The position numbers and the translations under genes were made by a program. Below, piece after piece: positions 9,818 through 40,687 of a stretch of DNA of 64,000 nucleotides. This DNA is from Clostridia bacterium. GTDB lineage: Bacteria; Bacillota; Clostridia; Oscillospirales; CAG-272. How positions within the stretch are numbered: the first letter of the stretch is position 1; every line of letters begins with the position of its first letter. Below the pieces are notes generated by a model that worked only from the letters and a program-made list of their open reading frames with translations, was not told the DNA's origin and ran no database searches. The stretch covers positions 10,463 through 74,462 of the forward strand of contig JAFTJZ010000085.1 of NCBI GenBank assembly GCA_017456145.1. The letters are read 5' to 3'.

Positions 9818-10381
9818 TCAGCAGCATTCCTGACGCACAAGCATGGGTGGCGACACGCCAAGGCACCGTGCCGCATCCTGTGCCGAGTGAACCCACGCGT
9901 CGGTCATCTCCCCCGTCAGCACCAGAGGCATACGATGATGCACGGGGAGAACGGATGCGTTGGCATCGGTGGTGAGAATGACAAAGCGCAGCCCTTCGTT
10001 CGTATGAGTCCAAAGCCCCGCAAGGCAAAACATGGGAGCGTCCGGCAGCCCGAAACGATACTTCACCTTCTGTCTCGACCACTCAAAATATCCCGTCGTC
10101 GGAACCAGACAGCGGCGATGGTAAAAGGCATCGCGAAAGCTGACCTTCTCCTGCACGCTCTCGGCGCGGGCGTTGATGATGACCCCCTTGCCGTCGTATT
10201 TTGGAAAGCCCCATGTCCCCGGCACGGGCGTCTTATCTCTCCCGCACAGCAGCGGCACCGTCTCGGTCGGATAGATTTCGCCCGACTTCAGTTGCACCTC
10301 GGGATAGCTCATGCGCAGCTCACGGTAAAGAGCCCGCATATCAATACTCGTATCTTCTTCGGCTGTGTAGCGTCCGCACAT
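9818..10381 (-). CDS. SOS-response-associated peptidase (SRAP/YedK/HMCES family) abasic-site processing protein
   Basis: N-terminal MCGRY (catalytic Cys2), TGYFEW, and HHRMPLVL motifs. Confidence 0.9.
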   Translation of the reverse strand: MCGRYTAEEDTSIDMRALYRELRMSYPEVQLKSGEIYPTETVPLLCGRDKTPVPGTWGFPKYDGKGVIINARAESVQEKVSFRDAFYHRRCLVPTTGYFEWSRQKVKYRFGLPDAPMFCLAGLWTHTNEGLRFVILTTDANASVLPVHHRMPLVLTGEMTDAWVHSAQDAARCLGVSPPMLVRQECC

Positions 10382-10574
10382 ATCAGGTCTCCTTCCTTCG
10401 TTAAGTTAATGTTGCGCACACGCAATCATTTTTTCTGCAATATTCTTGTATGATTCTCCATATGCGCTTTATAAAAATTGATTTTTTATCAACATGGGAT
10501 CAATGTTCATTCCTTGTGTGACAGCACAATTATAAACCTTTACGTAATGTTCAAGTCAATAGGTTTTTGAAAAA

Positions 10575-11081
10575 TTATTTCAAGAATTTTGAATTATGCT
10601 CCAAGCCGTGAAATTCATATCCCCGCTCTCGCAATGAATCGATCTTGAGCGCGACAAGATTGACGTCGGAGTGGAGCGCGTGGGCGGTCTGCGCCGCGTC
10701 GTACCGATATTGATAGATGCACTCCAGCACGTCCTCATCGGGCAACAGAATGGCCGCGGCAACCATGTTCGCCTCATATTCCATGCGGCTTGCCATGTTG
10801 TAGAGCATGATCTCGGACAGCCCGCTGTCCTTCGCCGCGTCACGGTGGAGACGATCGTGCCCGATCTCGTGCGCACAGACGATCCGCGCCGTGCTCTCGT
10901 CCAGATGCTTGTTGAGAAACAGACATCTGCGGCGATGGATGACGCGATACATCCCCTTCAGGCGCTTGAAATCCTCACGATAGACGCAGATCCCAAGCCC
11001 CTGCGCAATGACAAACGGATCACGCGTACCAAATCTGCGGACCAGACGCATCCCGATCTCATCATATTTCGTTTGTTTCAT
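10575..11081 (-). CDS. ImmA/IrrE-family (COG2856, M78) zinc metallopeptidase
   Basis: HEIGH zinc motif (CAHEIGHDRLH). 168 aa. It lies 16 nt downstream of the XRE repressor gene on the same strand. Confidence 0.85.
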   Translation of the reverse strand: MKQTKYDEIGMRLVRRFGTRDPFVIAQGLGICVYREDFKRLKGMYRVIHRRRCLFLNKHLDESTARIVCAHEIGHDRLHRDAAKDSGLSEIMLYNMASRMEYEANMVAAAILLPDEDVLECIYQYRYDAAQTAHALHSDVNLVALKIDSLRERGYEFHGLEHNSKFLK

Positions 11082-11096
11082 GAAACTCCGCGATCC

Positions 11097-11513
11097 TCAC
11101 TTGTTGTCGCGCGGCTTTTTGGGCGCGTATTTTTTGTTTTCCTCCTTGGCGTCCCAGTAAGCACGGTTGAGCGCTGCCATAATAGCATCCTTCTCATCCT
11201 CATCCAGCTCACCGCCCGCGAACAGCCCGCGGATCTCGCCGACCAGCGCCTCCACGTCCCTCGCCGCAGATGCGCCGCCGCGCTCATACGCATTGACCAC
11301 GTGTACCCCCTCACTGCCCAGCAGATATTCGGTCGTCGTGCCCAGCGCATCCGCCATTTTCTGTACGACCTCCATATGCTGCGGCTTTCGGCTGCCCAGC
11401 TCGTAATTCTGTACCGTGCGCAGCGTTACGCCGATCGCTGTCGCAAGTGCGCTCTGGCTCATCCCCGCCGCCGCGCGCCTTTCCTTTAGTCTGTCCTTAA
11501 ATTCCATATTCAT
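11097..11513 (-). CDS. XRE-family HTH repressor (ImmR-like)
   Basis: HTH_3 motif MSQSALATAIGVTLRTVQNYELG. It is paired with the ImmA-type protease and divergent from dinB. Confidence 0.85.
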   Translation of the reverse strand: MNMEFKDRLKERRAAAGMSQSALATAIGVTLRTVQNYELGSRKPQHMEVVQKMADALGTTTEYLLGSEGVHVVNAYERGGASAARDVEALVGEIRGLFAGGELDEDEKDAIMAALNRAYWDAKEENKKYAPKKPRDNK

Positions 11514-11625
11514 ACCTCCGTGTTCTCAAAGCTCTCCGAACAGCTTATTGATCTAACGCCCCTGCATCAAAGAACAGCGAGCTCTGCTTGCCATATGTAA
11601 GGCTTTCGTACACCTTTCACATTTA

Positions 11626-11639
11626 CGAACATATTTTCG
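11626..11639. promoter_or_regulatory. LexA/DinR-type SOS box candidate 1
   Basis: CGAACATATTTTCG matches the Firmicute consensus CGAACATATGTTCG at 13 of 14 positions. It ends 10 nt upstream of the -35 element. Confidence 0.5.
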
Positions 11640-11648
11640 CAAAACCAC

Positions 11649-11677
11649 TTGACAACGCAATTGTGTTCGTGTATAAT
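11649..11677 (+). promoter_or_regulatory. Consensus sigma-A promoter of dinB
   Basis: TTGACA (11649-11654), an exact 17-nt spacer, then TATAAT (11672-11677), about 90 nt upstream of the dinB ATG. Confidence 0.65.
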
Positions 11678-11685
11678 ATAAAGCA

Positions 11686-11699
11686 CGAAACATCGTTCG
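11686..11699. promoter_or_regulatory. LexA/DinR-type SOS box candidate 2
   Basis: CGAAACATCGTTCG (core GAAA-N4-GTTC, 7 of 8 positions) lies immediately downstream of the -10 element, near the expected +1. A weaker third site, CGAACAGCTTTGTC, is at 11718-11731. Confidence 0.45.
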
Positions 11700-11768
11700 T
11701 ATATATCATACCACATACGAACAGCTTTGTCAAGTCCCCGCCGTTAAAATATGTAAAAAAAGGAGTCG

Positions 11769-13004
11769 ATGCGTGTGAACCGTACCATTTTACATTGTGA
11801 CATGAACAACTTTTACGCCTCGGTAGAGTGCCATCTCAACCCCGCGCTCGCCCCGCACCCCATCGCCGTCTGTGGCGAGACCGAGGAGAGGCACGGCATC
11901 GTACTGGCAAAAAATTATCTTGCCAAGGATTACGGTGTGCGTACGGGAGAGGCCGTCTGGCAGGCAAAGCAAAAATGCCCCTCCCTTCTGATCGTGCCGC
12001 CCCACTATGAGGAATACGTCAAGGTTTCCCGCGCCGCACGGCAGATCTACTACGATTATACCGACACCATCGAGCCGATGGGGCTGGACGAATGTTGGCT
12101 GGACGTCACGGGCAGCCGCCGTTTCTTCGGAGAAGGAGAGACGCTCGCCCATACCATCCGTACTCGGATCAAAAGTGAGCTGGGAGTGACGGTCTCGATA
12201 GGAGTCTCCTTCAACAAGGTGTTTGCCAAGCTCGGCAGCGATCTCAAAAAGCCCGATGCCGTCACCGTCATCACCGCCGAAGACTTTCGGGCAAGAATTT
12301 GGAACCTCCCCGCCTCGGAAATGCTGGGCGTGGGATCTGCCACGGCAAAAAAGCTGCACGCCGTCGGGATCCACACCATCGGCGATCTTGCCCACTATCC
12401 CCGCGACTGCTTGCGCTATAAGCTGGGCAAGTGCGGGGACGATCTGTGGCGCTACGCCAACGGACTTGACACCTCTGCGGTCGTCACGCGGGAGATCGAG
12501 GATCTGGACAAGACGGCGGGACACGGCATCACAACGCGGGAGGATCTGGTCTCGGACGATGAGGTCTGGCGGGTCATGCTCTCGCTTGCCCAGAACGTCG
12601 GGCATCGGCTGCACGTCTACCAAAAGAAAGCCACCGGCGTCGCCATCGACGTACGGGACAACGCGCTCTTCTCCCGCATCTGGCAGTGTAAGCTCGCCTA
12701 CCCGACGCAAAGCGCCTTCCGCATCGCCGACACCTGCTTTTCCCTGTTTCAAAAAAGCTACGGCTGGGCGCGCCCCATCCGTTCACTGACTGTCCGTGCC
12801 ATCGGCCTGGTCGCGGAAAATCTTCCTTACCAATTCGACCTTTTTCATAACGCGGACAGCATCGAAAAGGAAGAGACCCTCGACCGTACCATCGAGCAGC
12901 TGCGGGAGCGATACGGCAGCAGCATCATCCGCAACGCCGTGCTTTTGCACAATCCCAAGATGCCGCGAAGCGACGTTCTGCTGCGCCATACCGCGACCAA
13001 ATAG
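11769..13004 (+). CDS. dinB: Y-family DNA polymerase IV
   Basis: Motifs LHCDMNNFYASVE, GLDECWLDVT and SIGVSFNKVFAKLGSDLKKPD. A GTG at 11775 is an alternative start. Confidence 0.92.
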   Translation: MRVNRTILHCDMNNFYASVECHLNPALAPHPIAVCGETEERHGIVLAKNYLAKDYGVRTGEAVWQAKQKCPSLLIVPPHYEEYVKVSRAARQIYYDYTDTIEPMGLDECWLDVTGSRRFFGEGETLAHTIRTRIKSELGVTVSIGVSFNKVFAKLGSDLKKPDAVTVITAEDFRARIWNLPASEMLGVGSATAKKLHAVGIHTIGDLAHYPRDCLRYKLGKCGDDLWRYANGLDTSAVVTREIEDLDKTAGHGITTREDLVSDDEVWRVMLSLAQNVGHRLHVYQKKATGVAIDVRDNALFSRIWQCKLAYPTQSAFRIADTCFSLFQKSYGWARPIRSLTVRAIGLVAENLPYQFDLFHNADSIEKEETLDRTIEQLRERYGSSIIRNAVLLHNPKMPRSDVLLRHTATK

Positions 13005-13030
13005 CCGTCCAAAACTCAACAACAGATTGT

Positions 13031-13059
13031 TTGATTTTAGTGAGGTAATATGATATAAT
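13031..13059 (+). promoter_or_regulatory. Putative extended -10 sigma-A promoter for the small XRE gene
   Basis: TTGATT (13031-13036), a 17-nt spacer ending in TGa, then TATAAT (13054-13059). Confidence 0.5.
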
Positions 13060-13136
13060 GATTTTGGTTTCCGTAAAAACAACAAATTCAGCAAAAAATT
13101 TCATGTTCGAGACAATCGGAAGGGGGAGAGCACCAT

Positions 13137-13370
13137 ATGAACCTGGACGCCATCGGTAAAAACATCGCCACCATACGAAAGGCAAATCACCTGACCCAGG
13201 TCGAGCTGGCATCGCGCCTGAACGTCACCCCACAGGCAGTGAGCAAATGGGAAAACGGCGTCAATCTTCCCGAGACCTCATTGCTGGTCGCACTGTCGCA
13301 GCTATTTCAGGTCACCATCGATGAGCTGCTGATGAACGATCCGTATAAAGGCAACAGGATCGACGGATAA
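13137..13370 (+). CDS. Small XRE-family HTH transcriptional regulator
   Basis: 77 aa. HTH_3 motif LTQVELASRLNVTPQAVSKWENG. GGGGGAG ribosome-binding site upstream. Confidence 0.85.
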   Translation: MNLDAIGKNIATIRKANHLTQVELASRLNVTPQAVSKWENGVNLPETSLLVALSQLFQVTIDELLMNDPYKGNRIDG

Positions 13371-13459
13371 AACGAAGAAACAATCCGCCGCGCGTGTCGG
13401 CCGGACGCAGGAGCGGTTGTTTATAAAACAGAAATAATGAAATGAGAGGAAATTTTATC

Positions 13460-13684
13460 ATGGCAGAAATGAAAAAAGTAAGAGTTTGCAAGCGTTGCTC
13501 GGGATTTGACGTCGCCGAGCTCAAGGGAAAGGTCAAGGTCAAGGACACCTCGACGGGCTGCATCGGCAAGTGCGCGAGAAATTGCCCCGAGCTTGCGGGA
13601 AAGGTCTACGGTTATCTTGACGGCGAGTTCGTCGTCTGTGATACCAAGGAGGAATTTTTTGAGAAGATTGCACAGATTGTCTGA
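13460..13684 (+). CDS. Small Cys-rich protein, DUF1450 (YuzB)-like
   Basis: 74 aa counted from MAEMKK, with GAGGAA upstream. The Cys pattern C-x2-C ... GC-x3-C-x3-C and the tail LDGEFVVCDTKEEFFEKI resemble YuzB-type proteins. The family assignment rests on memory only. Confidence 0.45.
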   Translation: MAEMKKVRVCKRCSGFDVAELKGKVKVKDTSTGCIGKCARNCPELAGKVYGYLDGEFVVCDTKEEFFEKIAQIV

Positions 13685-13699
13685 ATAAGGAGATCGAGG

Positions 13700-14785
13700 A
13701 TGAAAAAACTTAAACATGTCCCGTTTCCTATCGGAGCGGAATCCAACGGCTTTATTGCCGCACTGTCCAGCGCCGTCCTGCCTTGTTTAGGAATCACTGA
13801 AGATGCACCTTACTGGTGTGCACCTAAAGGCAGTTATTGCATCCACTGCAGCGACTGCAACACATTGCAAAAGCATCAGGAAATGCTTTATCACACTCTG
13901 CTGGCAGCAAGCGGATTGGCATTCACCTTTGATTATCCCGAAGACGATGATGTAGGGTTCCATACTTTGCCAAACGCGCCCATCGGTTGGCGCTGGGACG
14001 AGCCGTTCGTGGAAAATCTCATGGACTTCGCGGGACTGTCTTACAAACGGTTCACTAATAAATCCGTGACAGAAATGTACGAAATCATCCGACAGACCAT
14101 CGACGCAGGATATACCGCCATTTGCGCTGATACGCATAACATTTCCGAGAATATGGCGTGGTCTCGCTGCTGGAATGTGGTCATCGGATATACAGAGGAC
14201 GGCATCTGCACCATGCGACACGGTGGAGAGATCATCACCGAAAGCGATCGTACATACAGCGATTGGATCGTAATCACCGGCAAAACAGAGAGACGGCAGA
14301 CATATCGAGATGTACTGGAGCGGATTTATACTACGCTTACCGATCCCTCCCACGATGCACTTGAGCAGGAAATTAACAATGATCTTTCCCATATTACACC
14401 GGAAAATGCAGTCGGATTATCATACAAAATGATGGGTATCAACGGTGTTCCCATTGAAACTCGCTGGCACGCGGCGGAGGCATTCTGCTCATCGAATAAT
14501 CTATTATCTTCTTTGACAAACGACGACACCGTAAAGAGTAAATTGTGCGATCTATTCTTTGATCGATATATCGCCAATAATAATAACGAAACCCACGGTA
14601 TCGGCTGGAAGATATGGGGGGCGCTGCACGTCGGTCCTTCGACCGGATACATGCCTACAGATGAATCCTTTGCGCTGATACAGCAGCCACAGGTGCAGGA
14701 GGAACTGAAACGGTTATTTAAGATCGTATTCGACAATGACCGCGCGGTGGCAGCCGGAATATACGATATTTTGAAAACAATGTGA
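13700..14785 (+). CDS. Island family A1: uncharacterised protein, possibly BtrH_N/DUF4872-like (papain-fold)
   Basis: 361 aa with AAGGAGA upstream. It is a paralogue of 16777-17823, sharing the core I.xG...I...W..V[VI]IGY.ED. It has an A1-specific Cys cluster, C-x6-C-x2-C-x2-C. The function call is tentative. Confidence 0.4.
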   Translation: MKKLKHVPFPIGAESNGFIAALSSAVLPCLGITEDAPYWCAPKGSYCIHCSDCNTLQKHQEMLYHTLLAASGLAFTFDYPEDDDVGFHTLPNAPIGWRWDEPFVENLMDFAGLSYKRFTNKSVTEMYEIIRQTIDAGYTAICADTHNISENMAWSRCWNVVIGYTEDGICTMRHGGEIITESDRTYSDWIVITGKTERRQTYRDVLERIYTTLTDPSHDALEQEINNDLSHITPENAVGLSYKMMGINGVPIETRWHAAEAFCSSNNLLSSLTNDDTVKSKLCDLFFDRYIANNNNETHGIGWKIWGALHVGPSTGYMPTDESFALIQQPQVQEELKRLFKIVFDNDRAVAAGIYDILKTM

Positions 14786-14944
14786 AATCACCATTCTACA
14801 ATTGACAAATAAAATATCTGCAAATTGCAATAGCAAGTTGCAACAAAAAATAACCGCAAGGAATAATAAACCATGAACAAATCAATAGCAGAGAGCTTTG
14901 AATCAGTAAAACAATCCGATACGAATTTGGAAAAGGAGAATAAT

Positions 14945-15457
14945 ATGAAAGAATTTCAATGTGAATCATTTGAATATGTTAATACCGGCAAGTTACGATT
15001 TATAGGTATTGATGCATACTGTAAGTGCGATGATTGGAACGCTCATTGGGAACGCTCGTTGGAGCTTTTGCCTCAACTTGAAGCAATGCTCGACGAATAC
15101 GGAGCATTTGTTACTTATCCCAGCGCACTTATACATTCCGGCGGCAAAGAGGTCGGGATTGAGGAACATTTTTTGGCAGGTTATTTCTTCAAGCAAGGTA
15201 CACCCGTTCCGGAAGGATATGATTATTTCGATATTGATGCAGAAGTACTCGGATACGGCATTTATACTACAGATGATTTCCCCGGTGATATGGAATCGGT
15301 ATATGTCATGGCACGCGATAAGATATTGAATGATGGCTTTTTGATTCCGTATCCTCAAGGATATTGTCACGCGGAAATATACACCGACGGACGTGATTTT
15401 GAGGGTGCGTTGCGTATCGGGTATATGTTTCCGACGAACAGGGAAAGTAATATATGA
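14945..15457 (+). CDS. Island family B1: GyrI-like / AraC-effector-binding-type small-molecule-binding protein
   Basis: Start placed at MKEFQCE, with AAGGAGA upstream. It is a paralogue of 19521-20102 (RFIGID, GYFFK..TPVPEG, GYGIY, RDKIL.DG..PYP.GY). Its stop overlaps the C1 start (ATGA). Confidence 0.55.
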   Translation: MKEFQCESFEYVNTGKLRFIGIDAYCKCDDWNAHWERSLELLPQLEAMLDEYGAFVTYPSALIHSGGKEVGIEEHFLAGYFFKQGTPVPEGYDYFDIDAEVLGYGIYTTDDFPGDMESVYVMARDKILNDGFLIPYPQGYCHAEIYTDGRDFEGALRIGYMFPTNRESNI

Positions 15458-16638
15458 TTTTTGAAAAAAATGTTACTGAATTTTCCACCATGCTTCACCG
15501 GGATATTTATATGAGGGCGCTTCGACTTGTCCCGCCGGAGATATCTTTGGCAGAAATCGAAAAAGAAACTCCTGAAATGGCTGAAAGCGGACGGGAATTT
15601 TATCATTTCATGCTGGAACTGTACAGCGATATGTTTTGTAATCCCGAAATCTATGGCATGACGCCCGGGGCATATGAAGATATGGCACAGCATCGTAAGT
15701 GGAATTATATGCGTTTGCGTGTGAAAAACGTCGATGACTATTTTTGCTTATCCGAAACTCAAATTGCATCATATGTGCGTTTCATACATGAAATGGCATT
15801 ATTCTGTCATATTTCAGAGGGTTGCTGTTATCTGACATATGATGTTTTTGAAAAAGCGAAAGATCTGAAACGAGTCACACCTGTTAACAAGCAGAAGTTA
15901 TTGCTTCCGATCCAAATGGTTATGAAAAATCTGGAACGAGTAGGATTGGAGCTACAAGATGATGGTGAAAAAATTCAAGTTATATGTGAAAAATATCCCG
16001 ATATGTTTTTGGCTGCCTCTGCACTTAGAAAAACAGTAGAAGATACCATTCAAAACCCCGTATCCAAAAAGCTGAAATACTACTTTGGTGAATATATGGA
16101 TACCCTGGATTTTCGATTGCTGAAAGAGCCTTATTATCCTGATTTTGAGGATCACATACGTCATCTTTCCGATAAAGACCGCGAGGCGGTAATAACATTA
16201 GATGCACTGGCAAAAGAATACAAATGTAAATCTGATTATAAAAATTGTCTTGAATATAAGTACAAAGGCAAATATGTCATGAGTGTTTGGACACACGGAC
16301 TCTACCACGAGCCAACTCGCCAACACGATACCTGGCGTCGATACGTACGGTGTCGTGTGGCGGGAACGGTGAATTCGTCTTATCTTGAACAGGTGGAGAT
16401 AGAAGGGGACGATTTCAAACAATATTTTATGCGGCATTTGAATCGGTGCAGCGGATGTACCCCTGCTCATTTGAACAGTCAAAATGCGATTAAGAAGATT
16501 TTCGGAAGAAGTGTTCGTTTTTGTTCTATCAATATCGCCACTGAAATCGCCGGGCTTACCATAAACGATCTCCCGTATATCAGAAAGTTTATAGAAATGA
16601 GAATAAGGGAAATTGAAGGAGAGAAAAATTATGCATAA
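15454..16638 (+). CDS. Island family C1: hypothetical protein (no family recognised)
   Basis: 394 aa. It is a paralogue of 17854-18876 (LVP.EISL, [FL]YHF, KYP[DH]M, and the C-terminal motif HL..C..CTP...IFG....FC...DL..I...IE.R). Confidence 0.6.
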   Translation: MIFEKNVTEFSTMLHRDIYMRALRLVPPEISLAEIEKETPEMAESGREFYHFMLELYSDMFCNPEIYGMTPGAYEDMAQHRKWNYMRLRVKNVDDYFCLSETQIASYVRFIHEMALFCHISEGCCYLTYDVFEKAKDLKRVTPVNKQKLLLPIQMVMKNLERVGLELQDDGEKIQVICEKYPDMFLAASALRKTVEDTIQNPVSKKLKYYFGEYMDTLDFRLLKEPYYPDFEDHIRHLSDKDREAVITLDALAKEYKCKSDYKNCLEYKYKGKYVMSVWTHGLYHEPTRQHDTWRRYVRCRVAGTVNSSYLEQVEIEGDDFKQYFMRHLNRCSGCTPAHLNSQNAIKKIFGRSVRFCSINIATEIAGLTINDLPYIRKFIEMRIREIEGEKNYA

Positions 16639-16776
16639 ATGCCACAACCATTTCAAGCCATTTCCCATCGAGAATTGTGGGGATGTCAACTACACGTTAA
16701 TTGACGGCTGCTGATATTTATATTTCAACAAACAAATTTTATATTTTAGCAAACAAATATTGTACGGAGGACAAAC

Positions 16777-17823
16777 ATGAAAAAACAATTACAATATAAC
16801 TCGCCGTTTTGGATTTGGGGCGGCTTGGGCTTTTATAACTGCTATGCTTCGGTTTATATGCATATACAAAAGGAAAACGGATGTGCCGTGGCATCGGATC
16901 GACCGGAGGATTTTGTCGAAAATTTGAACAATTTGTTTGAAACCATGGCAGGTCAAACGCTGATGCGCTCTTCATGGTCAAAGGAACCCACAATCATGGA
17001 AAAGGAATTGGCTCTTCGGTTTGGAAATGGCAGCAATGCCACGGATGAGCTGGTGGATTTTATTGTGGGTTTCACCGGTTATGAATATAAAAAAATCACC
17101 GCTGACTTCAAGCAAACAGTGATGGATTCTATTAACACCGGCAAGCCGTTGATTGCCAAGCTGAAATCTGACGATTGGCAGTCGGGTCTGGGCAAGGGAT
17201 ATCGAGTGATTATCGGGTATGACGAGGATGCTTTGCTGGAACCGAGCTATGTTTTTGAGTCGAACACCACCCCGGCCAAAGCGGTCACTTATGATCAGAT
17301 AGAATGGCTCTATTTGTTTGGCGATAAAATCGCTCAAAAATATACCATGCTGGATGTTCTGAAACAGATGGAAGAAATTATGAACAGTGATTTTTCCCAA
17401 GGAATCTGGGTGGATTTTGCCTATCACTTCGATTTTGAACACGGGGATTGGGGCGAGAAGGTAGCGCAGGTAAAACAGCGGTTTGCACGTCTGGAAGATA
17501 TGGGCTGGGATCTTTCCTGCATGAGCCATTCTCTGCAAAACGCCACCGGCGACCGCGAGCTGCTGCAATCCTTGGGATTGGATGTAGAGCAGCACGATGA
17601 ATTGATTGACACTTTGGGTGAGCAAACCCACTTGCTGCATAATTTAGGATATCAGGCGAACGCCTTGAGAGAATCCGTCTTTGCATTTCAACTGAATGAC
17701 GAGCAGGAGTGGCCTTGGAATTTGAACGGTCTGATCACCTCGACGGCAATGATCTTTGACGCAGTGATGGAATGTGAAATGAAAATTTTATTGGCGATCA
17801 AAAAAGCCATTCGGAAATTTTAA
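16777..17823 (+). CDS. Island family A2: uncharacterised protein, paralogue of A1
   Basis: 348 aa with GGAGGA upstream. N-terminal GFYNCYASVYMHI plus the core GYRVIIGYDED. The C-terminal half is helical by eye. Confidence 0.4.
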   Translation: MKKQLQYNSPFWIWGGLGFYNCYASVYMHIQKENGCAVASDRPEDFVENLNNLFETMAGQTLMRSSWSKEPTIMEKELALRFGNGSNATDELVDFIVGFTGYEYKKITADFKQTVMDSINTGKPLIAKLKSDDWQSGLGKGYRVIIGYDEDALLEPSYVFESNTTPAKAVTYDQIEWLYLFGDKIAQKYTMLDVLKQMEEIMNSDFSQGIWVDFAYHFDFEHGDWGEKVAQVKQRFARLEDMGWDLSCMSHSLQNATGDRELLQSLGLDVEQHDELIDTLGEQTHLLHNLGYQANALRESVFAFQLNDEQEWPWNLNGLITSTAMIFDAVMECEMKILLAIKKAIRKF

Positions 17824-17853
17824 GAGAGACCATTGAAAAGGTGAAATACCGCT

Positions 17854-18876
17854 ATGATTGATAGAAACAAGCCCGATTATCAAACACCCACGCAGAAAGA
17901 AATCTGGAATGCAGCAACCAATCTTGTGCCACTCGAAATTTCTCTACCTGCGATCCCGATGGAATATCATCAATCCTGCCGTGATTTATATCACTTTTTT
18001 ACAGATATTCTGGAGGATATGTATATACATCCTGACCCTTATATGGCTCTGGGCGATGTACAGACCTATATTCGTTGGTTTTGGGTATTTCTTTATAAAG
18101 CATATGATTTTGAGGGTGGCGCATTTATCACGCCGATTGACAAACACAAGAAATTTGTTAAAAAAATGGGCGCGCCGCTATTGGATTTTCTGACAACCCG
18201 ATGGGGACTTCAAATCAAAAAGACAGATACGGAAGTGCGCATCTCCAACACAAAATATCCCCATATGCTGTCAGCGGTCTATAACACCTTGCAGGCTGCT
18301 TACAAAAATTATAACGTAAATTGCGGCGATTATCTGACCTTCTGCGATTTTCGCGCGTTGGTAAACTACAAACGAACCTACCATGATATGCTCGAACTTT
18401 TGAACCGCGAAGGACAAGCCATAGCGGAAAGCATATGTGAATTTGCACTGGCTCGTGGGATCAAGCCGGTCAAGTGTACGTATTTCAATCGCGTGGAATT
18501 TAAGAAAAAGGGAAAGATCGTCTTTATTCTGGACGTAGCAGAAGGTAAAAACCTCAAGATCAACATCGGATTTGCGGAGCTTGGCGGACAGGCGTTCCGA
18601 CGGATGTCGGACGCGATTGATGCTTATACGGACAAGGAGATATTTGTTCGTTACTTACGTAACCATCTAAAAAAATGCACCAATTGCACACCCGGGTGTC
18701 AAAAGCGAGCAAATCCCGTAGAAATTTTTGGCTTAAAAACGATCTTTTGTCAACCGTTTTTACGAATGTTCCAACCGCCCAAGACGGATCTGCACCACAT
18801 ATTTCGCTTGATCGAGCTCCGTGAAATGGTTGTGGATGCAGGCATTTCCGAGATATTTTATCCGGGAAATGGATGA
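17854..18876 (+). CDS. Island family C2: hypothetical protein, paralogue of C1
   Basis: 340 aa. It shares the N-terminal and C-terminal motifs of C1, including HLKKCTNCTP...IFGLKTIFC. Confidence 0.6.
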   Translation: MIDRNKPDYQTPTQKEIWNAATNLVPLEISLPAIPMEYHQSCRDLYHFFTDILEDMYIHPDPYMALGDVQTYIRWFWVFLYKAYDFEGGAFITPIDKHKKFVKKMGAPLLDFLTTRWGLQIKKTDTEVRISNTKYPHMLSAVYNTLQAAYKNYNVNCGDYLTFCDFRALVNYKRTYHDMLELLNREGQAIAESICEFALARGIKPVKCTYFNRVEFKKKGKIVFILDVAEGKNLKINIGFAELGGQAFRRMSDAIDAYTDKEIFVRYLRNHLKKCTNCTPGCQKRANPVEIFGLKTIFCQPFLRMFQPPKTDLHHIFRLIELREMVVDAGISEIFYPGNG

Positions 18877-18934
18877 ACGATTTGGTCGAAAAAACACACT
18901 GCAAATGCAAATACAAAAAGGAGAAGATTCAATC

Positions 18935-19468
18935 ATGATTTTAGAAACAGAACGCTTAATGATTCGCCATTTCAAGGAAGATGACTGGAAGGATTTTCAA
19001 GAGATAGCGATTTCTAAAGAACAATCCGCCTACGCATACGCGGATTTTACTTGGCCAACTGATGAAAACAGCGCTAAAAATTCTTGTTCATATATGGCCA
19101 CTGACAACGACATATGGGCAATCACTCGAAAAGAAGACGGCAAAGTGATCTGTTTCGTAAATTTCAATGGCATCAATGATGAACATATCCTTGACGTGGG
19201 TCATGTGATGAATATGGAATACGGAAAGCAAGGGTATGAGTTTGAAGGATTAAAACGCCTGTACGAATACGCCTTCGAGACGCTCGGCGTTGCAGGAATT
19301 AAGGCAAGCTGGGCAAAGGGAGATATCGAAAAACTGGAGCCGTTGGTATGTCTTGGCATGAAAACGATCGTCGAATGGGTTGGAGATGCTTTTGACAATT
19401 CAGGGAGAGCATATGAAGGTTGCACGATGATGATCACGCGCGATGAGTGGAAAAATAATATATTTTAA
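18935..19468 (+). CDS. GNAT-family N-acetyltransferase (RimJ/RimL-like)
   Basis: Start at MILETERLMIRHFKEDDW, with AAAGGAGAAG upstream. Acetyl-CoA-site-like motif GKQGYEFEGLKRLYEYAF. Confidence 0.75.
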   Translation: MILETERLMIRHFKEDDWKDFQEIAISKEQSAYAYADFTWPTDENSAKNSCSYMATDNDIWAITRKEDGKVICFVNFNGINDEHILDVGHVMNMEYGKQGYEFEGLKRLYEYAFETLGVAGIKASWAKGDIEKLEPLVCLGMKTIVEWVGDAFDNSGRAYEGCTMMITRDEWKNNIF

Positions 19469-19520
19469 GAAATCTATTTTATTGAAAAATAAACTAAGTG
19501 TAGGAGAAATAGAAGAATCG

Positions 19521-20102
19521 ATGAAAATCGAATGTTTTAATTATTACACCACCGGTAGAATGCGATTTATCGGTGTAGATACTAAAGCAGATGAGGAAGC
19601 CTTTGTCGTCTTAGACAACGCAGAAACCATGCAAACACTGGTGAACCGCTTGGAGCCCTTAAAGGCACAGCTGGAGCAGCTGCAAACAGAATACGGAACC
19701 GACATTCGGGAGCTTTGTTATGTCAATCACAGTTCCAATTTGGAGCTGTGCAATGATGACCGCCTTATGGTTGGATATTTCTTCAAGGCTGATACCCCCG
19801 TTCCCGAGGGTGCGTCTTATATTGACATACTTACCGATACCGTTGGTTACGGAATATATGTCACCCAAAATTTGAAAGATGATGAGGATAAAGCATATGT
19901 AACAACCCGCGATCGCATTTTGCATGATGGAAACATCGTACCCTATCCGGTAGGATATTGGACGGCAATGGTGTTTACCAACGGTCTGCCGCATGAGGGA
20001 AATTATCGCTTTGGTTATGTGTTTCCATCATTGGAAAAACCGTTATATGACGCACTGGTCGAGGAATATCATCAGATAACTTCAAACAGATGCATGAAAT
20101 AA
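19521..20102 (+). CDS. Island family B2: GyrI-like small-molecule-binding protein, paralogue of B1
   Basis: Start at MKIECFNYYTTGRMRFIGVD, with AGGAGA upstream. It shares all the B-family motifs. Confidence 0.55.
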   Translation: MKIECFNYYTTGRMRFIGVDTKADEEAFVVLDNAETMQTLVNRLEPLKAQLEQLQTEYGTDIRELCYVNHSSNLELCNDDRLMVGYFFKADTPVPEGASYIDILTDTVGYGIYVTQNLKDDEDKAYVTTRDRILHDGNIVPYPVGYWTAMVFTNGLPHEGNYRFGYVFPSLEKPLYDALVEEYHQITSNRCMK

Positions 20103-20172
20103 TTACGTATATACGCCCAGAGTTGAGTATTCATCATTACCGATAGGTTAAATAAAATTCCTCCACAAAAAA

Positions 20173-20212
20173 GTCGACGCCCATCCGTGCTTGCACGGAT
20201 GGCAACGTCGAC
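20173..20212. terminator. Bidirectional intrinsic terminator closing the island and yigZ
   Basis: Nested hairpin GTCGACG-CCATCCGTGC-TT-GCACGGATGG-CAA-CGTCGAC, flanked by AAAAAA on the 5' side and GTTTT on the 3' side. Confidence 0.65.
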
Positions 20213-20232
20213 CGTTTTCAATTTATAGCATA

Positions 20233-20910
20233 TCAGCGATAATCAAATCGTTCCCCGAGTCGCTGTGCAGAGAGCACTCCCGCGCTCATCTCGCGCAGCG
20301 CGGCATCCAGATCGGGGAGCACAGGCTCCTTGACAGCAAAGGTCACGCTGACCTCGTCCGCAAAGGCCACATCATCCACCACCGCGCCAAAGCGGGGCAG
20401 CATGGCGCTCAAGCGTTGATAATCGGAGTAAGAGCAACTCACACCCAGCACTGCATAGGTCTCATACGTAACGATCCCCGCCGCCTGTAGGGCAAGCGCA
20501 GCACTGTGCGCGTACGCACGAACCAAGCCACCCGCACCCAGCAGCGTTCCGCCGAAATAGCGGGTCACGATGACCAGCGCATCGTCCGCGCCCGACTGGC
20601 GGATGCTCTCCAGCACCGGCATCCCCGCCGTGCCCTGCGGCTCGCCGTCATCGCTGTAGCGGGCAAGAATACCGCCCTTCATGGTATATCCGTAAACATG
20701 ATGGGTCGCGTCGGGCATCTCTTTTTTCTTGGCACGGATGATCTCCAACGCAGCCTCCTCACTCTCCACGTGTGCGGCATAACCGAGAAAGACCGATTTT
20801 TTCTCAACAAATTCGATCTCCCCGATCCCCGCAAGCGTCGTATAGGTCACGGGGGCGGCAGGCACTGTGCCCGCCCCGATGCTTTTACTTTTTCCTTTAT
20901 CCTTCGCCAT
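20233..20910 (-). CDS. yigZ: YigZ/IMPACT-family protein
   Basis: Motif HHVYGYTMKGGILARYSDDGEPQGTAGMPVLE. Its ATG overlaps the hflX stop by 1 nt. Confidence 0.85.
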   Translation of the reverse strand: MAKDKGKSKSIGAGTVPAAPVTYTTLAGIGEIEFVEKKSVFLGYAAHVESEEAALEIIRAKKKEMPDATHHVYGYTMKGGILARYSDDGEPQGTAGMPVLESIRQSGADDALVIVTRYFGGTLLGAGGLVRAYAHSAALALQAAGIVTYETYAVLGVSCSYSDYQRLSAMLPRFGAVVDDVAFADEVSVTFAVKEPVLPDLDAALREMSAGVLSAQRLGERFDYR

Positions 20911-40227: not shown

Positions 40228-40570
40228 AATAATCCCTCCGTTCCGTCATAAAAATGTCGCGCGTTATCCGTCGTTTTGGAACGAACCCGCAACATACCAT
40301 GATAATAATACATGGAAGTTGTGTCATGGATTTGACCTAATTATGAACGTTTGCTGATTTTTGTTCACATTTTTCGATTTTTTTGTGTCCGCATTGTCAA
40401 AGACGCTCACATCGGGCATTTTTTCTGCCGCTATGCGCAGTTTTCGTGTATTTTTTCGTCACTTTAGCGTTATGATAGATAAAGCAGCCTCAAAATCCGC
40501 GTCATACGAGGGTGTTTTGTGAAAAACGTAAAATTGTTTATAAAAATTCCACAAAGTGAGCAAATATCTC

Positions 40571-40599
40571 TTGATTTATCTTAAAAAAAGTGATAGAAT
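40571..40599 (+). promoter_or_regulatory. Putative extended -10 promoter of the glycogen operon
   Basis: TTGATT (40571-40576), a 17-nt spacer ending in TGa, then TAGAAT (40594-40599), 88 nt upstream of glgB. Confidence 0.45.
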
Positions 40600-40687
40600 A
40601 TAATATATATATTATATTTAATGCAAAACGGCGCCGTATCGTGGCGTCGGTCACATCTTTTTCACCGTGAAAGGATGACTTTCCCAT

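Follow-up and report, generated by a model that had tools for sequence, protein, structure and literature searches.

A compositionally foreign gene island in a Clostridia genome combines three linked protein families and a GNAT in a possible small-molecule binding and modification module

Classically, GyrI-like domains that sense drugs are found in AraC- and MerR-type helix-turn-helix (HTH) proteins, with Rob, BmrR and BrlR as examples, and TipAS is the free-standing form of TipAL. GyrI-like domains also occur as stand-alone proteins. One of them, CtaZ, confers antibiotic resistance in Clostridia through drug binding, and a cassette of a regulator and two transporters is found around 96% of ctaZ homologues (PMC9545259). 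YtkR7 and C10R6, likewise stand-alone, are reported to hydrolyse the drug (PMC5684135). CtaG, the carrier-protein-dependent ligase of closthioamide biosynthesis, consists of a papain-like N-domain and a helical C-domain, bears the triad Cys11-His128-Asp144 and has BtrH and AsbE as structural homologues (PMC12865890). Here we describe a gene island that recalls all of these systems, located in a 64,000-nucleotide (nt) stretch of contig JAFTJZ010000085.1 (assembly GCA_017456145.1, positions 10,463 to 74,462) from a spore-forming Clostridia bacterium; this whole stretch is called the window, and coordinates refer to it. Between 13700 and 20102, the island holds seven open reading frames (ORFs) on the + strand, which form three paralogous pairs, termed A1/A2, B1/B2 and C1/C2, plus one GNAT-type N-acetyltransferase (Table 1). 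Families A, B and C are linked by neighbourhood and by fusion, both to each other and to AraC-/MerR-type regulators, and the island may be an accessory module of the small-molecule binding/modification type, built partly from two undescribed families. No paper describing the A/B/C gene set was found in the literature.

The same ligand-domain families that are used by one-component sensors, including Rob-type AraC-GyrI proteins, MerR-GyrI proteins (BmrR, BrlR and EcmrR) and TipAL/TipAS, are present in the island in free-standing form. Unlike in these sensors, a DNA-binding domain is missing from A, B and C; a separate 77-amino-acid (aa) XRE protein is the sole HTH protein, and the island encodes no efflux pump. 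Protein B is small, soluble and stand-alone, as are CtaZ, SbmC/GyrI, Cass2 and the cyclopropanoid hydrolases YtkR7/C10R6; in contrast to these proteins, it falls below the Pfam thresholds, and its locus lacks the regulator-plus-two-transporter cassette of ctaZ loci. A1 shares with CtaG, BtrH and AsbE (PDB 9QVJ; Pfam BtrH_N) the bipartite build, in which a papain-like domain at the N-terminus is joined to a helical bundle at the C-terminus, and differs from them in sequence, in its active site and in an extra four-Cys insert. As for C, its C-terminal fold is locally like that of YdhG-like, DUF1801 and DUF3788 (+DUF3795) proteins, and a DUF3795 gene lies near C in one related locus (L109), but these signals are insignificant; C is moreover 340-400 aa long, has extra N-terminal helical and winged-helix-like parts, and carries its own C-x2-C...C motif. 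The ensemble thus lacks the features that define the enzymatic and cassette families: triad, carrier protein, transporters and Pfam-level membership.

The island stands out sharply from its surroundings. Its G+C content is 42.7% against 55.4% in the rest of the window, which is 8.6 standard deviations (SD) below the other segments of equal length (55.6 ± 1.5%, minimum 52.8%), while its tetranucleotide L1 distance is 0.453 against 0.137 ± 0.014 (maximum 0.163). Both measures fall outside the range of all other segments and confirm the AT-rich character noted in the original prediction, which had been made from the sequence alone. The seven same-strand coding sequences and the three-family layout described there also hold; on L108, an identical contig from a metagenome, independently called genes have the same lengths of 361, 170, 394, 348, 340, 177 and 193 aa. 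The reported lack of mobility marks was borne out as well: Pfam and NCBIfam scans matched no island ORF to an integrase or transposase family, no tRNA was found between 10000 and 24000, and the repeat search gave nothing convincing at the flanks. No Rfam family was detected in 12800-20400 at E ≤ 0.1, and the island proteins have no transmembrane-like segments (maximum KD19 1.4). Core genes lie on both sides, with rpoD, dnaG, an HD phosphohydrolase gene, spoIIGA, sigE and an MFS transporter gene on the dinB side, and yigZ (IMPACT family), hflX and the L31 gene on the other. A strain with an empty site was sought through the exact YigZ protein, and only the island-carrying arrangement was returned. 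The island is compositionally foreign and probably represents a horizontally acquired chromosomal accessory operon. Two other 1-kb segments of the window also have low G+C, at 0.456 (around 40228-40687) and 0.463 (1501-2500), and neither resembles the island; the former spans a spacer of about 460 nt which, from sequence features, we take to lie between an ABC ATPase gene and a glycogen-branching-enzyme-like gene.

Sequence and profile comparisons agree on the three paralogous pairs, which had been recognised by eye. B1 and B2 are 40% identical (2e-41), C1 and C2 24% (8e-17, BLASTP), and A1 and A2 21% over 114 aa (3e-4); for the last pair, the profiles of the two A families matched in hhalign at a probability of 98.3% with E 1.7e-14 over 219 columns. 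The original prediction had further proposed that the gene set duplicated in situ. This origin is ruled out by the far closer orthologue of each copy elsewhere: the nearest orthologues outside the island are 89% identical for C1 (P0002), 85-86% for B1, 77% for A1 and 81% for A2 (L109:4580-5629). Because each copy is nearer to outside relatives than to its island partner, no duplication took place on the spot, and the island instead unites anciently diverged lineages.

The structural evidence on A comes from an AlphaFold model of A1 built from a 26-sequence alignment, the same 26 sequences being used for the Cys counts below. The model is confident (pLDDT 91.3, pTM 0.90) and shows a papain-like alpha/beta N-domain followed by an all-helical C-domain. 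In a Foldseek search of the PDB, the sole probable matches were the CtaG structures 9qvk, 9qvs and 9qvj (E 3e-3, probability 0.99-1.00), at low TM-scores of 0.37-0.42. Family A had been likened to BtrH_N/DUF4872 papain-fold proteins, and this guess was right at the fold level because the A1 model matches CtaG with its BtrH-type bipartite build (Foldseek probability 1.0). It does not extend to family membership. A1 matched nothing in Pfam at E ≤ 0.1, including PF14399 and PF16169, and A2 gave only a weak Peptidase_C39_2 match (0.032, below the cut-off). PDB sequence searches with the A1-family profile and with the A2 sequence yielded nothing significant, and the one BtrH_N protein compared with the A2 family in hhalign gave a negative result. 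The A1 family comprises 229 clusters at E ≤ 0.001, none with a Pfam domain, and of the 79 genome loci recovered, nearly all bear a Clostridia annotation (Lachnospiraceae, Oscillospiraceae, Acetatifactor and others).

The active site of the CtaG fold was mapped onto A through motifs and secondary structure, not through three-dimensional superposition, and by this mapping the Cys-His-Asp triad appears unconserved in both the A1 and the A2 families. At the N-terminus of helix 1, the A1 family has E14-S15-D/N16 with an invariant Ala21, and in a paralogous A subfamily even the helix-1 Ser is substituted. The strand to which motif analogy assigns the His begins with an invariant Trp158, and position 159 is variable. 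The A2-family alignment has no conserved His in or beside the 'RVIIGYD' strand motif. An active Cys-protease-like transacylase was ruled out for A on account of the unconserved triad, as was Cys22 of A2 as a nucleophile, this residue being Ser in the 81%-identical orthologue and Arg in another relative. What the A1 family conserves is a four-Cys insert (C40 in 26/26 sequences, C47 and C50 in 25/26 each, C53 in 22/26), which suggests a metal site, together with invariant His88, Asp188, His218, His257 and His299 and the motif IEARWHAAE. Relatives of A2 bear a similar Cys cluster, and the island A2 has lost the four-Cys insert.

Family B is small, with 24 clusters. When its profile was compared with the PDB, the GyrI-like domain of BrlR occupied the top three places (E 0.0085-0.011) over about 90 positions, in an alignment that takes in the conserved aGyf..vPeG stretch; CtaZ (7ZHE) was absent from the matches at E ≤ 1. 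Sub-threshold Pfam matches were obtained for three of 17 B members, namely Cass2 in two (0.017 at best) and GyrI-like in one (0.01). A 311-aa protein (L092:6555-7490) joins an AraC HTH domain (HTH_18/HTH_AraC, residues 22-113) to a B-family match of 6e-68, which takes the place of the C-terminal effector domain, and in L008 an AraC HTH gene and a B gene are adjacent. The clusters that contain C homologues also include small GyrI-like genes, with one of 181 aa above threshold in L003 (3.3e-6) and weak ones of 174 and 184 aa in L109. Because the BrlR match, the three weak Pfam matches, the AraC-HTH+B fusion and the GyrI-like genes of the C clusters converge, B is probably a very divergent GyrI-like/Cass2-type domain. 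The GyrI-like assignment made earlier is supported in this sense by the BrlR profile match and the fusion, although the Pfam signals remain sub-threshold.

Family C had been singled out as matching nothing recognisable, and database searches uphold this description. NCBIfam, PADLOC and PHROGs returned nothing for C, as was also the case for A and B, and among 109 members none has a significant Pfam domain; one gave a weak DUF3788 match (0.0013) and one is fused to Flavodoxin_2. Close relatives of C1 form only 28 clusters among 5.8 billion proteins, and an exhaustive profile search of 1.84 billion representatives extended the superfamily to 289 of them at E ≤ 0.001. The C1 model is confident (pLDDT 87.5, pTM 0.87), and Foldseek found nothing at E < 0.001 in either the PDB or BFVD; PDB sequence searches with the C1 sequence and with the C-superfamily profile were likewise without significant matches. 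Local likeness to the winged-helix proteins SSV1 F-93 and MarR reached a Foldseek probability of up to 0.38 (E about 1 or higher), and the C-terminal alpha+beta part aligned with the YdhG-like 9t2w_B at a TM-score on the target of 0.56 (probability 0.35, E 4.4). Comparison of the C superfamily by hhalign with one DUF3788+DUF3795 protein (L007) was negative.

The most conserved feature of C is its Cys motif, H-L-x2-C-x2-C-x-P-x-H...C in the close family, in which C332, C335 and C357 are near-invariant across the superfamily (107/109, 105/109 and 98/109); this pattern suggests a metal site. The roughly 150 C-terminal residues that contain the motif also occur as stand-alone proteins. At L102:316-7278 (Ga0082212_10007709), six such Cys-motif paralogues of 146-182 aa stand in tandem, interleaved with other genes of the locus and with zero Pfam matches, and the same locus encodes a C2-like C-family protein of 346 aa that ends in YYPGSG, compared with FYPGNG in C2.

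The GNAT assignment of the original prediction is secured by a match above the curated threshold to PF13302, the RimJ/RimL-like Acetyltransf_3 family (Table 1). The protein also matches a PHROG acetyltransferase (2e-9), and its nearest solved structure is PDB 3fbu, an uncharacterised GNAT (3e-5). The C-containing clusters L003-L007 hold GNATs that are 40-41% identical to it.

Genomic context elsewhere ties these families together. Among 14 independent C contexts, about 12 also contain A and/or B/GyrI-like genes, and five, counting the window, contain a GNAT; co-occurrence of A, B and C homologues, raised as a question in the original prediction, is thus observed in other genomes. The arrangements vary. 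In L069, C lies next to A1. An AraC-HTH/B gene or gene pair lies directly upstream of C in L008-10 and L092-93, and L002 and L111 combine an AraC-GyrI gene, a long A-like protein (about 590-600 aa) and C. The group L003-6 and L096 contains RidA, C, a GNAT, a GyrI-like gene and a transposase, whereas L007 has a DUF3788+DUF3795 gene directly upstream of C, followed by B and a GNAT. L077 brings together a B-like gene, a fusion of the C C-terminal domain with a weak Cass2-like stretch, A1 and A2, and L102 a C2-type gene, a GNAT, a LexA-like gene, a VOC gene of the glyoxalase/bleomycin-resistance type, the C-domain paralogues and A2. The LexA-like HTH + S24-type protein of L102 was judged from sequence features and an HTH match. 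Transposases stand beside the related clusters L003-6, L007 and L111.

L109 (L109:1-12704, Logan SRR25400511) is a bigger version of the island with nearly all genes unannotated; it encodes a C1 orthologue with 87% identity and runs A2, B, A2, A2, a 709-aa B+A2 fusion, DUF3795, B and C. Its array thus counts three A2-type genes and several B/GyrI-like genes, besides a PNPOx-like gene and the DUF3795 gene. In L032 and L034, C is accompanied by a GNAT, an Fpg-like gene and a GyrI+A1 fusion. The Fpg/Nei-like protein (L032:8554-9531 and L034:8611-9531; Lachnospiraceae bacterium CE91-St56, AP025576.1) lies downstream of C, between the GNAT and the fusion, and has an H2TH match of 7.8e-8 (32.6 bits, just under the 34.7 cut-off) and zf-FPG_IleRS at threshold. 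Found in these two related loci only, it hints at a DNA-damage link.

A different setting is seen in L001 (L001:1-21161; GCA_054268455.1, JAZLTW010000016.1), where a 44%-identical C homologue sits inside an apparent biosynthetic gene cluster. This cluster includes two BtrH_N genes, four radical-SAM genes (one B12-binding and one SPASM), a class III aminotransferase gene and a TobZ-type carbamoyltransferase gene, with an AraC-GyrI gene, a long A-like protein and an ABC/beta-lactamase fusion at its edge. It may encode the pathway to a tailored metabolite, aminoglycoside-like or of another type, in an anaerobic host.

The neighbourhoods of A1 homologues were sampled at 77 loci (genomes of 79 species) with four genes on either side, and 76 loci were scored within 5 kb. 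Across the 77 loci, the recurrent neighbours are AraC+GyrI/Cass2 proteins at 16 loci, of which 11 have them directly upstream, MerR fusion proteins at 15, ABC exporters at 16 and MATE pumps at six; a separate profile count placed an AraC-linked GyrI domain within 5 kb at 14 of the 76. Direct fusions give further links. GyrI/Cass2 is joined to A1 in P0126 and L034, B to A2 in the 709-aa protein of L109, the C C-terminal domain to a weak, sub-threshold Cass2-like stretch in a 630-aa protein of L077, and a P-loop kinase (CPT/zeta-like) to A1 in P0136; the joining of A1 to Acetyltransf_4 in P0122 may be genuine or the product of an assembly error. Proteins of about 874 aa with an N-terminal MerR HTH (Pfam 2e-14) lie next to A1 homologues at L019:11337-13961 and at 14 other loci. 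By eye, their middle 'VTWIVGQKHLAVIINGEIRYCGTDFPYM' resembles 'ISWIVHSNFMAVIVNGEVRHYGVNYPYM', the C-terminal segment of the 590-600-aa A-like proteins, and their C-terminal part looks A-like ('NGSAAYVMECLG...VLVGYEEYG'); only the MerR part is confirmed by search.

The results on fold and linkage are solid, and based on this evidence the operon of about 13.03-20.21 kb may be a cytosolic module for the binding, sequestration and acetylation of xenobiotics or antibiotics, a reading to which we assign a probability of roughly 0.4. Soluble cytosolic proteins would bind, sequester and N-acetylate one or more small molecules, for example antibiotics, genotoxins or xenobiotics of other kinds. The GyrI-like B and the triad-less papain fold of A, with its putative four-Cys metal site, would serve as ligand-capture proteins, stand-alone counterparts of the sensor domains that are fused elsewhere to AraC or MerR DNA-binding domains, in a role likened to that of CtaZ, SbmC and TipAS towards their ligands. 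C, with its putative Cys metal motif and translational coupling to B1, would be a partner of B and A, and the GNAT would acetylate an amine on the captured compound; no other recognised catalytic machinery is present in the island proteins. The upstream XRE HTH protein would act as the operon's regulator, with the palindromes and the 21-nt repeats as its possible targets.

Several observations weigh against this proposal. To our knowledge, no ligand, binding or resistance phenotype has been reported for any member of A, B or C. B1 and B2 have no match to Pfam PF06445 or PF14526, and hhalign of B against an ad hoc, possibly poor alignment of AraC-linked GyrI domains was negative. No transporter or membrane protein is encoded between 13137 and 20102 (KD19, Pfam), in contrast to a CtaZ-type cassette. 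A1 could be an enzyme of another kind rather than a binder, since a large number of its His, Asp, Glu, Arg and Trp residues are invariant, and the C homologue of L001 is as compatible with a role in biosynthesis as with one in resistance or regulation. Of the 76 loci scored, only 4 have C and 1 has B within 5 kb of the A1 homologue; since so few A1 homologues have either neighbour, the A/B/C set is not obligatory.

A wider version of the binding-and-acetylation proposal, which we regard as tentative and rather doubtful, is that A, B and C form an undescribed modular system of gut Clostridia that senses and neutralises natural products, possibly genotoxic or gyrase-targeting ones. Two new domain families, the triad-less CtaG/BtrH-fold A and the metal-motif C, would combine with a divergent GyrI-like domain, and the same modules would be deployed either as AraC/MerR-fused sensors or as free-standing capture proteins in diversifying tandem arrays, with the GNAT completing inactivation. 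Thin hints of DNA-damaging ligands come from the SRAP-IrrE-HTH-DinB genes beside the island and from the Fpg-like, LexA-like and bleomycin-resistance-type VOC genes in related loci.

Other explanations give the same genes different roles. The module might be ligand-sensing and regulatory, with A, B and C as sensors and as co- or anti-regulators that act with HTH proteins to switch on, for example, efflux pumps instead of neutralising a compound themselves, and C itself might bind DNA through its winged-helix-like domain. A-like and B-like domains are indeed fused to AraC/MerR HTH domains, A1 homologues lie directly beside such regulators, the first gene of the operon encodes an XRE HTH protein, and HTH genes are found again in related clusters; the operon also contains a tandem repeat and palindromes that are candidate operators, and the C1 model is locally like SSV1 F-93 and MarR. 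That last likeness is insignificant, however, Pfam and NCBIfam recognise no DNA-binding domain in A, B or C of the island, and the GNAT together with arrays of six or more diverged paralogues (L102, L109) better suits effectors or binders; we regard a regulatory role as unlikely. A biosynthetic or tailoring cassette is improbable. In such a cassette, A would act as a CtaG/BtrH-type transacylase or ligase, the GNAT as an acyltransferase and B in self-resistance, as suggested by the CtaG match of the A1 fold, which BtrH and AsbE share, by the C homologue within the radical-SAM/BtrH_N/carbamoyltransferase cluster of L001, and by the closthioamide locus, which pairs CtaG with the GyrI-like CtaZ. 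The triad that such chemistry uses in CtaG is nevertheless unconserved in A1 and A2, and it is regulators and efflux pumps, not biosynthetic genes, that most often recur beside A1 homologues. Pfam and NCBIfam also gave no island match to carrier-protein, adenylation, ATP-grasp, polyketide synthase (PKS), nonribosomal peptide synthetase (NRPS) or radical-SAM families, and no PP-binding or related carrier-protein domain among the nine proteins of the unit.

Diverged tandem paralogues in AT-rich loci, some of them by transposases (the window, L102, L109, L003, L007 and L111), and small, soluble proteins without recognisable catalytic motifs would also be expected of an orphan array of immunity proteins against proteinaceous interbacterial toxins. 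We consider this very improbable: the loci examined showed no recognisable gene for a toxin or a secretion system, nor one of the LXG/Rhs type, the GNAT is a conserved member, and the fusions to AraC/MerR sensors of the small-molecule type and the efflux pumps near A1 homologues point elsewhere. Least credible of all is an anti-phage defence system. An accessory island of foreign composition made of uncharacterised genes, and the LexA-like HTH + S24-type protein in L102, are compatible with one, but PADLOC models matched none of eight proteins at E ≤ 0.1, and Pfam and NCBIfam revealed no nuclease, ATPase, TIR, SIR2 or similar effector family. In addition, tblastn of C1 and A1 against 72,556 known plasmids gave zero matches, and the only PHROGs match of note among the island proteins was the GNAT.

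The transcription unit probably begins near 13.03 kb, upstream of A1, because A1 is preceded on its own strand by a promoter-like site, an XRE HTH gene and a small Cys-rich gene, all of which accompany it in L108. This promoter-like site is the top-scoring one on the + strand of the region, in a scan that matched consensus only and found no more sites than in shuffled sequences. The XRE HTH gene, whose own G+C is near the host value, is kept with the island on L108, and XRE HTH genes recur in the related clusters L002, L007, L092 and L102. The Cys-rich gene was called as 74 aa on L108, and in a metagenome-assembled genome (MAG) of Clostridiaceae, a copy with 79% identity (L033:8698-8922) is found about 1 kb upstream of genes for a GNAT and an A1 homologue. 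Its product resembles FeoC/Fe-S repressor-type proteins very weakly (E about 0.4) and may be a member of the functional unit, perhaps a metal- or redox-related partner.

Several of the short elements that had been picked out by eye are present where they were described, including both palindromic octamers of the A1-B1 spacer and the ATGA overlap of the B1 stop and C1 start, each checked in the sequence. The palindromes overlap a -35-like TTGCAA, and the consensus scan placed a promoter-like site at 14838-14867. TTGCAA is scarce in the window (13 seen against 24.8 expected), and two copies stand 13 nt apart in this spacer. The tandem 21-nt repeats overlap promoter-like hexamers, with consensus-scan sites at 16717-16745 and 16768-16795, which suggests that the second half of the operon has a promoter of its own or a site for a regulator here. 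At the other end, the proposed bidirectional terminator can be read in the sequence as a hairpin with its A-run and T-run, but the consensus scan did not list it.

Table 1. Coordinates of the island genes, candidate control elements and upstream cluster in the window
Feature	Coordinates	Strand	Remarks
SRAP (YedK-like) protein	9818-10381	-	Upstream cluster
IrrE/ImmA-type M78 peptidase	10575-11081	-	Upstream cluster
XRE HTH partner of M78 peptidase	11097-11513	-	Upstream cluster
dinB	11769-13004	+	Upstream cluster; divergent
Promoter-like TTGATT-17-TATAAT with extended TG	13031-13059	+	10/12 matches; possible operon start
XRE-type HTH_3 regulator, 77 aa	13137-13370	+	Pfam HTH_3 1.2e-15; candidate operon regulator
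Small Cys-rich protein, 74 aa (80-aa version from 13442)	13460-13684	+	Pfam DUF1450 0.0021, sub-threshold
A1, 361 aa, CtaG/BtrH-fold protein	13700-14785	+	AlphaFold and Foldseek
Palindromic octamers ATTGCAAT and GTTGCAAC	14824-14831 and 14837-14844		A1-B1 spacer; candidate operator
B1, 170 aa, divergent GyrI-like/Cass2-type putative ligand-binding protein	14945-15457	+	Ribosome-binding site AAGGAG precedes 14945
C1, 394 aa, multidomain, motif H328-x3-C332-x2-C335...C357	15454-16638	+	Start overlaps B1 stop (ATGA)
Tandem 21-nt direct repeat TTTATATTTCAACAAACAAAT / TTTATATTTTAGCAAACAAAT, 90% identical	16717-16758	+	C1-A2 spacer, just upstream of A2
A2, 348 aa, second A-superfamily member	16777-17823	+	hhalign to A1 family
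C2, 340 aa, shorter C paralogue, same Cys motif	17854-18876	+	Aligns with C family
GNAT N-acetyltransferase, 177 aa, Acetyltransf_3 type	18935-19468	+	PF13302 2.5e-12, 48.1 bits, cut-off 25.4
B2, 193 aa, second B-family protein	19521-20102	+	Aligned with B1
G+C-rich hairpin, A-run before, T-run after	20173-20212		Bidirectional terminator-like; between island and convergent yigZ

Directly upstream of the island, a DNA-damage-type cluster of host-like G+C spans 9818-13004, in which the SRAP gene and the IrrE/ImmA-type peptidase gene with its HTH partner are followed by dinB.

Gut Clostridia carry many unannotated accessory genes, and three dark families are now joined into one network through neighbourhood and fusion. 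This network extends to AraC/MerR regulators and to drug-binding domains of the GyrI-like type, and the A1 family also connects it with efflux pumps. The models of C1 and A1 are confident and therefore directly usable in experiments, and even if the role of the module proved regulatory or biosynthetic instead, the network would still provide testable partners for each family. If the binding and modification reading is true, the island would add new ligand-binding scaffolds, including a papain fold that lacks the triad and bears a metal site, and another fold that has no match in the PDB. If its proteins capture or modify drugs, they would represent resistance determinants of the gut resistome that current databases overlook.

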